This document shows, piece by piece, positions 25,122 to 30,448 of a stretch of DNA of 32,000 nucleotides; position 1 is the stretch's first letter; every line of letters begins with the position of its first letter. Location: assembly GCF_000017845.1 (NCBI RefSeq), contig NC_010546.1, positions 360,001-392,000 of the forward strand, given 5' to 3'. Below the pieces are notes generated by a model. It did not search any database. It saw only the letters and a program-made list of their open reading frames with translations, and had not been told where the DNA came from. This DNA comes from Crocosphaera subtropica ATCC 51142 (lineage in GTDB: Bacteria; Cyanobacteriota; Cyanobacteriia; Cyanobacteriales; Microcystaceae). A program made the translations under genes and the position numbers.

Positions 25122-25573
25122 ATGAAAACAGTAAAAAAACTTTACGAAACTGACTTTAATTTGTGGTTAGAAGAAACAGCAAGATTACTTAAAGAAAATA
25201 AATTAGAGGAATTAGATATTGAGAATTTAATCGAAGAAATTGAAGCATGGAAAGAAGTGAAAAAAAAGGATTTCGTAGTAACTTAGAACAATTATTACTA
25301 CACCTTTTAAAATGGAAATATCAAAAAAATAAACGATCAGGAAGTTGGGAAAGTTCTATTATTGAACATCGTAATAGAATGTTAGACGACTTAGAAGATA
25401 GTCCCAGTTATAAACCTTATTATGACAATATTTTTGATAAATGTTATCAGAATGGTAGAAAATATGCTAAAGCACAAACGGGTTTGCCTATCAAGACTTT
25501 TCCTGAAGTTTGTCCCTTTCCTAAAACAGAAATTTTAACCTCTGATTATCTTCCTGAAGATGACAATAATTAA
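25122..25573 (+). pseudogene. DUF29-family gene split by a 1-nt frameshift at about 25245
   Basis: A strong SD (AAGGAGG) is followed by an ATG at 25122. That frame encodes MKTVKKLYETDFNLWLEETARLLKENKLEELDIENLIEEIEA and then stops. The rest of the DUF29 consensus (MERSEKKGFRSNLEQLLLHLLKWKYQ...) continues in the ORF at 25247-25573, in a different frame. Confidence 0.7.
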
Positions 25574-25798: not shown

Positions 25799-27307
25799 AT
25801 GACCCTGAAATCATCTAACTATCAATTTACTTATACCCCTCATTATAAACCTAATCAACTAATTTGTGGTCATGGACAAACAGCAATTATTACAGGATGG
25901 ACCGTCAGACAAACTATTGCTAAAAAATTGAACCCAGAAGATTACGCTGTTATCGGAAATTTATACAGTCCCACAAGAGGAATTAGTCCTTTAATTCGTA
26001 ATTTATTAGCGAATCCTCATGTGAGATTTTTAGTTATTTTAGATGCAACCAAAGAAGACAAAAATGCAAGAGGATGTCAATGTTTATTAGACTTTTTACA
26101 ACAGGGTTTTACTCAAGGAACCAGTGATACAGGTCGAGATATTTGGGTAATAAATTCTGAGATTACTGGTTATATTGACATAGAAATTGATGCTAATGCT
26201 TTAGAAACTTTGCGTCAATCTCTTGACTATAAATTAGTAAACTCTATAAGTGAAGCAATCAATTTTATTAAAGAATTTAGTCAACAAAAAAACAAACAAC
26301 CTTGGGGAGAACCTTTAACTTTCCCCATGATGGAAACTACTCCTACAGTATTACCTGGTCCTAGATATGGTCATCGTATTGAAGGGAAAACCATTGCAGA
26401 AACTTGGGTTAAAATATTGCATCGAATTAAAACAACAGGAACCATTAGACCAACTCAATATGGACAATGGCAAGAATTAATTGATTTGACCTCTATTATA
26501 ACAGATGAACCCTTAAATTTCTATTTTCCTAGTTCTAATTATTTACCTATAAAACGAGATTTTATTAATGATTATATTGGACAGATTTTAGACGATGCAC
26601 CCCAAAAAGAAGGGGTAAAATACACTTATGGTCAAAGGTTGCGATCGTGGTTTGAACGAGATCAAATTCAACAAGCAATTGATAAATTAATAACTGATAA
26701 AGACTCATCTAGAGTGGTGATGTCTCTTTGGGATGTGAAAGATTATGAAAATAATGATAGTCCTCCTTGTCTTAATCATATTTGGGTAAGAATTGTTGAT
26801 AATGAGTTATCATTAACAGCAACTTTTCGTAGTAATGATATGTTTTCTGCTTGGCCAGCAAATGCAATGGGTTTAAGAGCATTACAAAAACATATTATAG
26901 AACAAATAAATAAAACTTCTAACCATAATTTTCAATTCGGACCATTAATTATTATCAGTCAAAGCGCACATATTTATAGTGATTGTTGGGAACACGCAGA
27001 CAAGGTTATTGAAACAGAATATACTAGAATATGTCAGCAAAAAAACTATACTGATCCCAGTGGTAGTTTTTTGATTTCTATTAAAAATAATCAAATTATA
27101 GTTGAACATATTACCCCAGGTTCAGGGGAAGTGGTTAACTGTTATTCAGGAAAAACAGCGAAACAAGTTTACCAAAAAATTGCTGATACTTGTCCTGGTC
27201 TTGAAGTCAAACACGCTATGTATTTAGGGTCAGAATTACAAAAAGCAGAAATCTGTTTAGTTACAAATACAGATTTTTATCAACAAGATATACCTCTTGT
27301 TTTTTAA
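25799..27307 (+). CDS. Three-domain thymidylate-synthase-like fusion: MtrA-like N-domain, methanogen-type TS core, and a DUF4346-like C-domain
   Basis: 502 aa. The core carries TS-fold motifs SRVVMSLWDV, SPPCLNH (catalytic Cys), TFRSNDMFSAWPAN and SQSAHIY. The first 165 aa or so resemble MtrA (AIITGW...GNLYSPTRGISPLIRNLLANPHVRFLVIL). The last 90 aa or so resemble DUF4346 (DPSGSFLISI...HAMYLGSELQKAE). Confidence 0.75.
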   Translation: MTLKSSNYQFTYTPHYKPNQLICGHGQTAIITGWTVRQTIAKKLNPEDYAVIGNLYSPTRGISPLIRNLLANPHVRFLVILDATKEDKNARGCQCLLDFLQQGFTQGTSDTGRDIWVINSEITGYIDIEIDANALETLRQSLDYKLVNSISEAINFIKEFSQQKNKQPWGEPLTFPMMETTPTVLPGPRYGHRIEGKTIAETWVKILHRIKTTGTIRPTQYGQWQELIDLTSIITDEPLNFYFPSSNYLPIKRDFINDYIGQILDDAPQKEGVKYTYGQRLRSWFERDQIQQAIDKLITDKDSSRVVMSLWDVKDYENNDSPPCLNHIWVRIVDNELSLTATFRSNDMFSAWPANAMGLRALQKHIIEQINKTSNHNFQFGPLIIISQSAHIYSDCWEHADKVIETEYTRICQQKNYTDPSGSFLISIKNNQIIVEHITPGSGEVVNCYSGKTAKQVYQKIADTCPGLEVKHAMYLGSELQKAEICLVTNTDFYQQDIPLVF

Positions 27308-27352: not shown

Positions 27353-28039
27353 ATGACTATCTTAAGTGATCAAGATATAAGGCAAGAAATAGGGATCAAT
27401 ATATATATCTATCCCTATAAAAAAGATAATCTTAAAGGATCTAGTTATAATTTAACTGCCAGTCAATTAGCTTGGGATTTGTCTACTAGAAAAAGTATTT
27501 ATGATAGCAGTCAAAACAAAATTACCATTCAACCTAAGACAACTGCTTTAATAGAAACTAATGAAAGTATTTGGGTATCTCAAAAAATATCTGGAACTTA
27601 TTATTCCCGTGTTAGAGAAGTTTCAAAGGGTACTGGACATATTAGTACAACACTTGATCCTAACTATATTGGATGTTCTTTAATTGCGTTACGTAATCAT
27701 AGTCAATCACCCATAGAAATAACACCTGAAACTGATCCTTTTGTCACCCTTATTTTCCAATATTTACATACACCATCAACCAAAGAACAAACTAGGAATA
27801 CTTCAGGACGAAGAGATTTACTTAGCACACTTGGAATACAATTGAATAAAGAAGAAACAGAATTTCTAGATCGAGAGTTTATGAATAATAAAGATGCACT
27901 ATTGAATAAATTACTAGAATGTGATGATTATAAAATCATACAAAAAAACGAGAGCAAGAAGAAAAAGAGAGACTTGAACAAATATCAAATCAAAAGAAAA
28001 ACCTTTTTTTTAAAAAACAATAACAATATCTTATTTTGA
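27353..28039 (+). CDS. dCTP-deaminase-fold (dUTPase superfamily) protein, divergent, with a charged C-terminal extension of about 80 aa
   Basis: The N-terminus ILSDQDI...INIYIYPY...LKGSSYNLTAS and the core TLDPNYIGCSLIALRN align by eye with the Dcd blocks (LCDRDI, IDPGWSGCIVLEFYN). The Dcd catalytic Glu position is Ala. The tail is Lys-rich (KKKKRDLNKYQIKRK). Confidence 0.65.
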   Translation: MTILSDQDIRQEIGINIYIYPYKKDNLKGSSYNLTASQLAWDLSTRKSIYDSSQNKITIQPKTTALIETNESIWVSQKISGTYYSRVREVSKGTGHISTTLDPNYIGCSLIALRNHSQSPIEITPETDPFVTLIFQYLHTPSTKEQTRNTSGRRDLLSTLGIQLNKEETEFLDREFMNNKDALLNKLLECDDYKIIQKNESKKKKRDLNKYQIKRKTFFLKNNNNILF

Positions 28040-28218
28040 GCAGTTGTCTGATAATATTAATTATATCAGCTATTTGGCTAAGTAATAATCAAAATAAATT
28101 ACAGTCCAAATCCTGGTATAATACAGCTAATAAAGTGATTGAGTGGGTATTGCCTACTATTACAGTAATATTAGTAAACTTATGGATTAATGACATAGAT
28201 CGTAAAGCTAATAAATGA
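28036..28218 (+). CDS. Possible 60-aa two-TM micro-protein, translationally coupled to the Dcd-like gene
   Basis: Its TTG start overlaps the upstream TGA (TTGA). Two hydrophobic segments are present (CLIILIISAIWL and VLPTITVILVNLWI). There is no in-frame ATG, so the call is uncertain. Confidence 0.35.
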   Translation: MSSCLIILIISAIWLSNNQNKLQSKSWYNTANKVIEWVLPTITVILVNLWINDIDRKANK

Positions 28219-28278: not shown

Positions 28279-28707
28279 ATGCAGATTAAAATCATTAAAT
28301 TAAAAGAAAAAGCAATTATTCCAAAATATGAACATGATAATGATTCAGGACTTGATTTAGTTTCTACAGAAACTGTAGAAATACCATCAGGAGAAAGTAA
28401 ATTAGTTAAAACAGGAATTTCCATTGAATTACCTCCTAATACTGAAGCACAAATCCGTCCGAGAAGCGGACTCGCATTAAAACATCAAATCACTGTTTTA
28501 AACACCCCAGGAACTATTGATGAAGGGTACAGAGGAGAAATAGGGGTTATCTTAATTAATCATGGTAAAAGATCCTTTAAAGTCACTGAAGGAATGAGAA
28601 TTGCTCAGATGGTAATTGCTCCTGTTATTCGAGTAAAAATCCAAGAAGTTGAGCAATTAAGTGATACAATCAGAGGACAAGGTGGCTTTGGTTCAACAGG
28701 GGTTTAA
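28279..28707 (+). CDS. dut: dUTP diphosphatase (trimeric dUTPase)
   Basis: 142 aa with all the classical motifs: [40 protein letters not shown] and [10 protein letters not shown]. Confidence 0.95.
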
Positions 28708-28724: not shown

Positions 28725-29009
28725 ATGAATATCCCCCAATTTTTTGAGTGGGACGAAAATAAACGTCAAGCTAATATAGAGAAACATGGGATAGACTTTG
28801 CTGACTTAGAGAGGATTTTTACTAATCCATTTATACAGCGTATCGATAACCGTGTTAATTATGGGGAAACAAGAATTATTCTCTTAGGTGAATTAGACGG
28901 AGTTATCCTCTATATTGTATATACTTGGCGTGGGGATCTCTGTCGGTTTATTAGTGCTAGGAGGGCCAACCAACGTGAAAGAAACAAATATTACCAGAGT
29001 GTCTCGTGA
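28725..29009 (+). CDS. BrnT-family (DUF497) type II toxin
   Basis: FEWDENKRQANIEKHGIDFADLERIF...RFISARRANQRERNKY matches the BrnT family pattern. Confidence 0.85.
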   Translation: MNIPQFFEWDENKRQANIEKHGIDFADLERIFTNPFIQRIDNRVNYGETRIILLGELDGVILYIVYTWRGDLCRFISARRANQRERNKYYQSVS

Positions 29010-29181
29010 AGAATGGGCAAAAATGAAGGGTGAAACCGATTGGGATAAGATTAAAGGGATGACTGATGAGGAGATCGAAAAAAATGCCTTAGATGATCCC
29101 GATAGTCAACCTATTCCTGATGAAATGTGGGAAGATGCTCAAGTTGTTTTTCCTCAACAAAATACCGCAGTCAACAGTTAA
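28975..29181 (+). CDS. BrnA/DUF4415-like antitoxin (start uncertain)
   Basis: It contains GETDWDKIKGMTDEEIEKNALDDPDSQPIPDEMWEDA, which is typical of DUF4415 partners of BrnT. I assume the GTG at 28975, which overlaps the BrnT 3' end. An ATG 16 codons downstream is an alternative start. Confidence 0.7.
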   Translation: MKETNITRVSREEWAKMKGETDWDKIKGMTDEEIEKNALDDPDSQPIPDEMWEDAQVVFPQQNTAVNS

Positions 29182-29184
29182 CAG

Positions 29185-29244
29185 TATCAACGAACTTTCT
29201 TGAAGAACAAAGACCAACATGGGATGAAGAGTTTATCATGATAG
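29185..29244 (+). pseudogene. Ghost 5' fragment of the dCMP deaminase gene
   Basis: These 60 nt are 53/60 identical, without gaps, to 29901-29960 (the start region of the intact deaminase gene). The start ATG has become ACG. The fragment encodes (T)NFLEEQRPTWDEEFIMI versus MTFLEEQRPTWDEYFIMI. Confidence 0.75.
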
Positions 29245-29770: not shown

Positions 29771-29905
29771 GAGATATTAAAATAATTTTTATAACTTTTA
29801 CGTTTACGAGAAATTTTAATTAACTTGCCACTGCTTACATCAACGGATCATAATAGAGTTTAGGAGTAACAAAAACCCCCTATAACTACCTGTTTAAAAT
29901 TATCA

Positions 29906-30448
29906 ATGACCTTTCTTGAAGAACAAAGACCCACTTGGGACGAATACTTTATCATGATAGCTAAATTAGCTGCTACTCGCTCAACCTGTTTGGCTTTCCC
30001 AGTGGGTGCAGTGATCGTCAAAGATAGACAATTATTAGCTACGGGGTATAATGGCTCACCATCAGGAACAGCACACTGTACAGCACAAGGATTCTGTTAT
30101 CCTGGACTCGATAGCTGTGATAGTTCTAGTAGTCTCCCTTCCCGTGCCATTCACGCTGAAGCCAATGCCATCGCCCAAGCAGCTAAATATGGCATTTCGA
30201 CCCACGGAGCTAGTATTTATGTTACCTTAGAGCCATGCGTTTCTTGTTTAAAATTAATTATCTCTGCAGGCATTAAAGACGTTTTTTATGAAACAGGGTT
30301 TAACAAAGGAGAAAAAGCTCTCGTTAGGGATGCTTTTCTCAAAGATGGATTAGTCAATTTAACCCAGATTCACTTATCCTCAGAAACGGCAAAACGTGCT
30401 TCCATTTTTCTCTTAAACCCCACATCAGTTGCCAGAGAAATGACTTAA
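29906..30448 (+). CDS. Zinc-dependent dCMP deaminase (CMP/dCMP deaminase family, ComEB-like)
   Basis: 180 aa. It begins WDEYFIMIAKLAATRSTC and has the zinc motifs HAEANAI and PCVSCLKLI. Confidence 0.9.
   Translation: MTFLEEQRPTWDEYFIMIAKLAATRSTCLAFPVGAVIVKDRQLLATGYNGSPSGTAHCTAQGFCYPGLDSCDSSSSLPSRAIHAEANAIAQAAKYGISTHGASIYVTLEPCVSCLKLIISAGIKDVFYETGFNKGEKALVRDAFLKDGLVNLTQIHLSSETAKRASIFLLNPTSVAREMT

Follow-up and report, generated by a model that had tools for sequence, protein, structure and literature searches.

Abortive-infection proteins that combine a sensor with a transmembrane (TM) effector follow a general design found in the effectors of CBASS, Thoeris, retron and Pycsar systems. In such effectors a small ligand-binding domain is fused to one or two C-terminal TM helices, and their genes are found in defence islands, on plasmids and in prophages. 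An anti-phage deoxycytidine triphosphate (dCTP) deaminase (AvcD; PADLOC dCTPase) has been described as a single-gene system (Tal et al. 2021 preprint, 10.1101/2021.04.26.441389). Here we describe positions 27353-28218 (plus strand) of a 32,000-nucleotide stretch of Crocosphaera subtropica ATCC 51142 (contig NC_010546.1, positions 360,001 to 392,000), referred to as the window, together with the protein family encoded there. The family is a previously undescribed, TM-fused and non-catalytic branch of the superfamily of dCTP deaminases (Dcd) and deoxyuridine triphosphate (dUTP) hydrolases (dUTPase, Dut), and its instance in the window is a pseudogene or a truncation. A first-pass annotation of the same positions had proposed a protein of Dcd fold lacking the catalytic residues, with a Lys-rich tail and a coupled micro-ORF for two TM helices.

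One broken gene in the window

The listing of open reading frames (ORFs) in the window contains ORF1 of 228 amino acids (aa; 27353-28039) and a TTG-initiated ORF of 60 aa (the 'micro-ORF', 28036-28218), which overlaps the end of ORF1 by TTGA; both are on the plus strand. Positions 27353-28218 are almost certainly one broken gene and not a gene with a coupled micro-ORF. Nearly all homologues have 260-330 aa, the two closest being P0002 (289 aa) and P0003 (286 aa). The in-frame part of ORF1 is 70-79% identical to intact Crocosphaera orthologues (about 70% for P0002 and P0003), and the sequence of the micro-ORF corresponds to the C-termini of P0002 and P0003 (...KKQYIILSSCLIVLIM...WYNTANKVIEWVIPTITVILVNLWFNDIDRKSNK). 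Nearly every residue of the remnant agrees with the P0002 C-terminus (...WYNTANKVIEWV.PTITVILVNLW.NDIDRK.NK), and the remnant reaches 34 bits against the hidden Markov model (HMM) of the family.

In a three-frame translation the similarity of ORF1 to its homologues ends after ...DDYKIIQK and continues in the -1 frame. The in-frame part (27353..27948, residues 1-198) comprises a DCD/dUTPase-like beta-barrel (about residues 1-145, PF22769) and the first linker helices. The following stretch, 27949..28039, shows no similarity to any homologue when read in the ORF1 frame, in which it encodes residues 199-228 and ends with TGA at 28037-28039. The alternative frame of 27949-28020 reads REQEEKERLEQISNQKKNLFFKKQ and matches P0002 (KRKEEANQRLQQISNQKKNIFFKKQ), and the micro-ORF frame reads ...KKREQEEKERLEQISNQKKNLFFKKQ*QYLILSSCL..., like P0002 except for the stop. 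A DNA alignment with two intact Crocosphaera orthologues located both lesions. One A is missing from the A7 run at 27942-27948, seen as a 1-column gap, and 6 extra bases form a perfect ACAATA/ACAATA tandem duplication at 28017-28028, also evident from direct reading of the sequence, which leads to an in-frame TAA at 28021-28023. Repair of both lesions yields 199 + 24 + 63 = 286 codons. The last 63 codons and the stop (28027..28218) are the remnant of a C-terminal two-helix membrane hairpin and include the 60-aa ORF. The ancestral protein thus had about 286 aa; its N-terminal Dcd/dUTPase-fold barrel was joined by a charged stalk of helices to a two-helix membrane hairpin at the C-terminus. The maximal product in this strain is a soluble 228-aa truncation with a nonsense tail. 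Since the hairpin is cut off by two lesions, the window copy is most likely non-functional or truncated, a gene in decay.

These results change the picture given by the first-pass annotation. Of the extra charged C-terminal region that it had noted, residues ~150-198 are the real start of the family linker, but residues 199-228, the supposed Lys-rich tail (NESKKKKRDLNKYQIKRKTFFLKNNNNILF), are out of frame and a product of the frameshift after the 1-nucleotide (nt) deletion. The 60-aa ORF and its TTGA overlap do exist; what the ORF encodes is the hairpin of the same ancestral protein, severed by the TAA. As a separate frame the micro-ORF is not conserved in homologous loci, where orthologues of 286-289 aa hold its sequence as their own C-terminus.

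It is very unlikely that the split is functional in this strain, with the soluble 228-aa protein and a separately initiated 60-aa two-TM peptide (TTG at 28036) cooperating. The TM-coding remnant is still near-identical to the orthologues, but a recent lesion explains this equally well. The TTG overlaps the ORF1 stop and the split state is constant over four read sets; nevertheless no Shine-Dalgarno sequence lies ahead of this TTG, which is just the first start-like codon 3' of the new TAA. Furthermore, the last 30 residues of ORF1 make no sense when compared with the family, and the two-gene design occurs in no orthologous locus. Other split copies of the family gene, in Nostoc flagelliforme, a Mastigocoleus metagenome-assembled genome (MAG) and a lake MAG (L027, L039, L045), are broken elsewhere. 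Programmed -1 frameshifting on the heptamer A_AAA_AAC of ORF1 was rejected as a rescue: a slip there would bring translation back into the family frame only for it to stop at the TAA (28021), and no single recoding event rejoins the hairpin. A sequencing or assembly artefact that conceals an intact gene has a negligible probability, since, although one lesion lies in a homopolymer and a nearby DUF29 gene (25122-25573) is split too, four independently assembled read sets of the same strain (Logan assemblies SRR26036486-89) contain the same ORFs with 100% identity to the window over 1.9-5.3 kb, which shows the lesions to be real in the strain, and the second lesion is a clean 6-bp tandem duplication, atypical of read errors.

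Nostoc flagelliforme FACHB-838 carries two family loci (L027:6001-6801 and L056:6007-6930), each followed by its own dut. One of the two genes is split (141 + 66 aa); the other is intact (307 aa) and of the subtype found in PCC 7107.

Fold and replaced catalytic residues

ORF1 matches the Pfam DCD profile PF22769 with 41 bits (cutoff 27, E 2.6e-10), and a Dcd/dUTPase beta-barrel is also obtained with an AlphaFold2 (AF2) monomer model and Foldseek, so that the fold assigned in the first-pass annotation holds. Against the Dcd equivalog TIGR02274 only 31.3 bits were reached (trusted cutoff 92.8), and against PF00692 (dUTPase) 17 bits (gathering cutoff 22). The fold assignment is well above chance, but curated thresholds class the ORF1 protein as neither Dcd nor Dut.

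Its earlier alignment with Dcd, made by eye, was reproduced by MAFFT, for which E. coli Dcd and, from genes neighbouring family members, three canonical cyanobacterial Dcds served as references. In the G-x11-G segment the window sequence GTYYSRVREVSKG is aligned with GWLDGRSSLARLG. The reported loss of three residues is likewise borne out (E. coli Dcd numbering): the window has Val for Ser111, Ser for Arg115 and Ala for Glu138 (E145 in M. jannaschii; window LIALRN versus VLEFYN). Arg110 is kept as Arg/Lys in the window and the family, His121 and Asp128 are kept, and Trp131 is Tyr in the window and Tyr/Trp in the family. The substitutions hold across 143 family representatives, which were chosen by profile and not by motif. 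At the Ser111 position 140 of the 143 have Val. The Arg115 position is occupied by Ser (104), Ala (10), Thr (9) or Asn (9) and by Arg in none, and the Glu138 position by Ala (83), Ser (30) or Thr (21), never by Glu or Asp. At the Asp128 position Asp (118) prevails over Asn (13) and Gly (10), and the aromatic position is W, Y or F in every representative. The canonical cyanobacterial Dcds next door retain both Ser111 and Arg115.

PDB entry titles name E138A/D and E145A/Q variants, and E138 and H121 are targets of active-site mutagenesis. For Ser111 and Arg115, roles in catalysis by E. coli Dcd were reportedly described by Johansson and co-workers in 2005. We take the residues that are retained (Arg110, His121, Asp128 and the aromatic residue) to be nucleotide contacts in Dcd and dUTPase structures, and those that are lost to be catalytic. 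Loss of Glu138 alone would not diagnose a dead enzyme, because the Thermococcales dUTPases 8y1w and 9ln0 have Met at this position. The stronger argument for lost chemistry is the absence of two further residues that are retained by those dUTPases, the motif-2 Ser and the Arg of AR.G.

Comparison with the dUTPase motifs gave a similar pattern. At the motif-2 Ser (R-S-S/G) the window reads S-R-V, and no GFGS-type motif 5 (R-G-x-x-G-F-G-S-T-G) was found anywhere in ORF1; the adjacent dut has both motifs. According to sequence and alignment, the motif-4 Arg/Gln and the P-loop-like arm of motif 5 are absent from the window protein. The motif-3 Asp with the sugar-stacking aromatic residue (I-D-x-x-Y) is present as L-D-P-N-Y. 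ORF1 scores 340 bits against the family HMM and carries the family signature GTY[HY]S[KR]V..VS.G.GHI[GS]TTLDP.[YW].G..LI...N as GTYYSRVREVSKGTGHISTTLDPNYIGCSLIALRN; within the family the motif GTYHS[KR]V..VS.G.GHI.TTLDP.[YW].G is very strongly conserved.

Architecture of intact family members

The AF2 model of the orthologue P0002, built with a 34-sequence alignment, has a mean pLDDT (predicted local distance difference test) of 93.2. It shows a beta-barrel (residues 1-145), short helices (150-188), a long helix (191-243) and a second helix (255-288), the last two of which correspond to the hairpin remnant of the window. The best Foldseek matches of this model are archaeal dUTPases (8y1w, 9ln0 and 9ln3; template modelling (TM) score 0.80-0.85), followed by Dcd-Dut and Dcd. 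A Kyte-Doolittle scan detected a hydrophobic 19-mer past residue 170 in 123 of the 126 representatives of at least 240 aa. The membrane tether surmised in the first-pass annotation is therefore a property of the family, but it resides in the same polypeptide and not in a separate coupled peptide. Orthologues have this C-terminal hairpin, and the window protein lacks it owing to the frameshift and the TAA. Long Clostridia forms (360-418 aa) stand apart only by an extended linker, which is likewise charged and helical.

Anabaena cylindrica has a divergent member of 259 aa (L092:4130-4909, minus strand; 134 bits) with the TM hairpin. It is inverted relative to dut, and the near-invariant His96 is Asn.

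Distribution and linkage to dUTP-related genes

A profile search of 1.84 billion cluster representatives assigned 383 clusters to the family at E<=1e-30. By a motif scan of GTDB species genomes 68 loci were found in cyanobacteria, Clostridia, Bacilli, Methanosarcinaceae, Desulfobacterota, Riflebacteria, Elusimicrobia and Bacteroidota. Neighbours were counted by an ORF and HMM scan of 67 species loci. In 41 of these dut is the next gene on the same strand, at a distance of -82 to +163 nt and often with an overlap of 1-4 nt; the set comprises 23 cyanobacterial loci and also loci of Halodesulfovibrio, of Methanococcoides and of many Firmicutes. Where dut is lacking, the adjoining same-strand gene can be one whose product, of 735-817 aa (604-662 aa in a few related loci), matches the PADLOC dCTPase model with 270-345 bits; at least 11 Clostridia loci have such an AvcD-like neighbour. 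In one Bacillota MAG (L070, 3497-7480) the family gene (393 aa) is flanked on its own strand by both kinds of partner, an AvcD-like deaminase gene (817 aa) and a dut fragment (106 aa). The family gene is linked tightly, and in an obligate-looking manner, to an immediate neighbour on its strand that is either dut or codes for an AvcD-like deaminase; in the window this neighbour is dut.

Outside the cyanobacteria, the family gene is found near type I and type IIG restriction-modification, DndBCD/Pbe and GmrSD genes, near PIN, dGTPase, HEC-05, PDC-S11 and mad5 genes, and near integrases, transposases and IS91, Mutator and Tn7 genes. Solo copies are present on nine conjugative plasmids of the Bacillus group, one of them adjoining a SIR2 gene. 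Three of four IMG/VR matches show the gene-dut pair inside recognisable prophages. One pair lies between a replication/methyltransferase module and the large terminase gene (L085:6187-7259), another directly after tail and endolysin genes (L084:5926-7469). A phage origin of the family was considered and rejected: 50,697 phage genomes contained no family match, IMG/VR provided only the 4 loci, BFVD matches cover the N-domain only, and PHROGs returned only a weak generic dCTP-deaminase family.

In cyanobacteria the gene lies between a thymidylate synthase (TS)-like gene or thyX and dut, with a canonical dcd or a deoxycytidine monophosphate (dCMP) deaminase gene beyond. The TS-like gene is upstream in 10 of the 63 loci scanned and also present in PCC 7424, UCYN-A and Anabaena. 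The order TS-like - dut - dCMP deaminase - TrkA - TrkH is intact in UCYN-A, where the same syntenic site has no trace of the family gene. Because it was lost in UCYN-A and is split in several lineages, the family gene is an accessory, dispensable gene. In Nostoc sp. PCC 7107 (L014:9709-11457) a canonical dcd convergent with the family-dut pair contains an intein (582 aa, PF14890), and the dcd of a Phormidium MAG (L032) is unusually long (510 aa) and may also carry an insertion.

The dut gene of the window (28279..28707, plus strand) starts 60 nt beyond the stop of the hairpin remnant. It encodes a canonical trimeric dUTPase (PF00692, 116.5 bits; NF001862, 191.5 bits) with all five dUTPase motifs, an ordinary cyanobacterial Dut that is 75-90% identical to many others, that of UCYN-A included. 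In a comparison that covered E. coli Dut and Duts paired with family genes, identity to the window Dut was 71-72% for the partners from a Lachnospiraceae MAG and from Methanococcoides, 56-68% for other partners from outside the cyanobacteria, and 38% for E. coli Dut. This suggests that the family gene-dut pair may have moved as a unit, possibly out of cyanobacteria. The idea of the partner Dut as a special subfamily is only partly supported, by the high identity across phyla, given that the window Dut is an ordinary cyanobacterial one.

Proposed function and its alternatives

We tentatively propose that the family is a non-catalytic sensor of deoxyuridine or deoxycytidine nucleotides, coupled to a membrane effector in an accessory, probably defensive module. 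Of the roles considered in the first-pass annotation, that of a dCTP/dUTP sensor or regulator is the one most consistent with the gene context, from which it is inferred. The barrel probably trimerises like its relatives and would bind a deoxy-pyrimidine nucleotide without turnover. Binding is probably retained because Arg110, His121, Asp128 and the sugar-stacking aromatic residue are kept; deamination or dUTPase-type hydrolysis is probably not, because Ser111 (the motif-2 Ser), Arg115, Glu138 and motifs 4 and 5 are gone. The AvcD-like partner would make dUTP or deoxyuridine monophosphate (dUMP), and Dut would remove dUTP. Because the alternative partners make or remove dUTP, a receptor for deoxyuridine nucleotides would be the most economical model. 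Its most likely ligand would be dUTP, the alternative being dUMP, the product of both partner enzymes. Nucleotide occupancy could be relayed via a trimeric stalk to a six-helix membrane bundle that permeabilises the membrane or signals, with Dut as a threshold-setter or antitoxin-like component and the defensive deaminase as the source of the signal. In the window this system is decaying and probably inactive.

A bolder form of this proposal, in which the family constitutes a new class of trimeric nucleotide-gated membrane effectors, seems rather unlikely. A dUTPase-fold pseudoenzyme would then read the pool of dUTP (or dUMP/dCTP) and open the six-helix bundle or signal through it, as an abortive-infection or checkpoint device whose logic may be likened to that of the P2X receptor. 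The module would have been exchanged between Bacteria and Archaea and would have reached plasmids and prophages.

Several observations weigh against a defensive sensor. Its ligand and its effector role are deduced from residues and neighbours alone. The position equivalent to Asp128 is Asn or Gly in 23 of the 143 representatives (16%). The polar residues His84, Ser85, His96, Thr99, Thr100, Asp102 and Asn115, invariant in the family, could form a new active site. PADLOC models gave no significant match for the window protein, P0002 or two long Clostridia forms. Finally, the cluster that holds the gene in cyanobacteria is conserved and of the housekeeping type (TS/ThyX - gene - dut - Dcd or dCMP deaminase), and a metabolic or regulatory role therefore fits at least as well as defence.

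Such a role could be that of a membrane scaffold or regulator of housekeeping deoxythymidine monophosphate (dTMP) synthesis that has no immune function. The inactive barrel would dock onto the homologous Dut (or Dcd) trimer, e.g. by trimer-on-trimer stacking as in hexameric Dcd-Dut, and the conversion of dUTP to dUMP to dTMP would be held or regulated at the membrane. The position between TS-like gene or thyX and dut in 23 cyanobacterial loci and in PCC 7424 and Anabaena, with a canonical Dcd or dCMP deaminase next door, is in agreement with this, as are the frequent start/stop overlap with dut, which suggests co-translation and a complex, and the unusual conservation of the partner Dut between phyla. 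Nevertheless we consider a scaffold improbable. It leaves unexplained why solo copies exist on Bacillus plasmids, why the gene pairs with AvcD-like deaminases where dut is lacking, and why it is found in restriction-modification, Dnd and prophage settings. Moreover, the gene is dispensable: UCYN-A lost it but kept TS, dut and dCMP deaminase, and in the window it is broken.

An active enzyme with altered chemistry, i.e. a membrane-bound nucleotide hydrolase or modifier using the His/Ser/Thr/Asp constellation of the family, is equally doubtful. The closest structures are real dUTPases that likewise lack Glu138, Asp102 (the motif-3 Asp) and the Tyr/Trp are mostly retained, and the very strong motif conservation implies a constrained pocket. 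On the other hand, Val stands in place of the motif-2 Ser in nearly all representatives (140/143), and 16% of them have Asn or Gly instead of the motif-3 Asp. The window protein has neither the motif-4 Arg/Gln nor the motif-5 arm. In addition, a second dUTPase beside dut would be redundant.

For the window itself, the result replaces a coupled micro-ORF and a Lys-rich tail by the ordinary decay of an accessory gene. The family is large and phylogenetically broad, has lost both known chemistries while a highly constrained pocket persists, and is wired to enzymes that raise or lower dUTP. This pattern provides a testable lead where dNTP metabolism meets phage defence. The proposed sensor of the dUTP pool, if true, would connect nucleotide-depletion immunity by AvcD-like dCTP deaminases with a membrane effector and would explain what the extra dut genes carried by mobile elements, a long-noted oddity, are for. 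A Dut scaffold, if true, would be the first factor found to organise bacterial dTMP synthesis at a membrane.

Other genes of the locus

The TS-like gene upstream (25799..27307, plus strand), identified by Pfam and curated-family profile matches, encodes a protein of 502 aa whose domain make-up is unusual. It combines a TS core of archaeal type (TIGR03283, 136 bits, below cutoff) with an MtrA-like N-domain and a pterin-binding domain (DUF4346). Because the gene is kept beside dut across cyanobacteria, the reduced genome of UCYN-A included, its product probably serves these organisms as their working TS. The disrupted DUF29 gene, a second broken accessory gene 2 kb upstream, consists of overlapping ORFs of 54 and 108 aa. 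Pfam DUF29 profile positions 37-138 are found in the second ORF, and the 54-aa ORF resembles the missing N-terminus. The 108-aa piece is also called in the Logan contig L002.

The last member of the conserved pyrimidine-dNTP cluster is a ComEB-like dCMP deaminase gene (29906..30448, plus strand; PF00383, 94 bits), whose synteny is the same in a Crocosphaera MAG and in UCYN-A. Between dut and this gene lies a BrnT toxin gene. A 67-nt direct repeat (29178-29244 and 29894-29960, 87% identity) duplicates the 5' end of the deaminase gene, and its upstream copy abuts the BrnT/BrnA-like cassette (28725-29181). As only 31 nt separate dut and the deaminase gene in UCYN-A, the cassette appears to have been inserted, with a duplication of the target left behind. 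An 88-aa ORF (28915-29181), which overlaps the end of brnT, resembles the N-terminal half of a BrnA/DUF4415 antitoxin (...TDWDKIKGMTDEEIEKNALDDPDSQP...) and has no Pfam match; since its end is the start of the duplicated deaminase 5' fragment, it may be truncated. No RNA family was detected by an Rfam scan of the window.

Comparison with known systems

A search of the literature on dCTP deaminase-like proteins, PF22769, inactive dUTPases and TM dUTPases in defence found no description of the family. As candidates for a known defence system, PADLOC returned only a 13-bit coiled-coil match to ZacA and nothing for full-length members. The 'dUTPase' candidate of DefensePredictor was rejected as well, being a different three-domain system. 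In domain layout and genomic setting, as known here from sequence and context, the family resembles the sensor-TM-effector design of abortive-infection proteins. We know of no TM effector that has a Dcd/dUTPase-fold sensor or that monitors a normal dNTP intermediate.

The anti-phage dCTP deaminase acts on the same nucleotide pool and, as shown above, is a neighbour of the family gene in Clostridia, but it has an unrelated fold with a zinc-dependent cytidine deaminase (CDA) and a kinase-like domain. Dcd (E. coli, 1xs1) and Dcd-Dut (M. jannaschii, 1ogh; M. tuberculosis, 2qlp) belong to the same superfamily as the family and have PF22769 in common with it. The N-terminal blocks, Arg110, His121, Asp128 and the G-x11-G loop can be aligned between Dcd and the family. 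In contrast, Ser111, Arg115 and Glu138 are replaced in the family, the TIGR02274 score is a third of the equivalog cutoff, and N..GR.D takes the place of the C-terminal lid motif of Dcd. Since many cyanobacteria have a genuine Dcd gene adjoining the family gene, the latter is not their Dcd but a paralogue.

The best match in both sequence and structure is found in archaeal Dcd-type dUTPases (Pyrococcus 'P45', 9ln0/9ln3; Thermococcus pacificus, 8y1w), with a profile E value of 2.6e-19 and Foldseek TM scores of 0.80-0.85 at 28-30% identity. These enzymes and the family have the beta-barrel in common, lack the deaminase Glu and keep the D-P-x-aromatic motif. The archaeal dUTPases are soluble, have about 155 aa and keep R-S-S and A-R-x-G, whereas the family has [KR]-V-x and V-S-x-G. 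Unlike them, the family possesses an extra helical stalk of 50-180 aa and two TM helices, and its genes adjoin a separate canonical dut.

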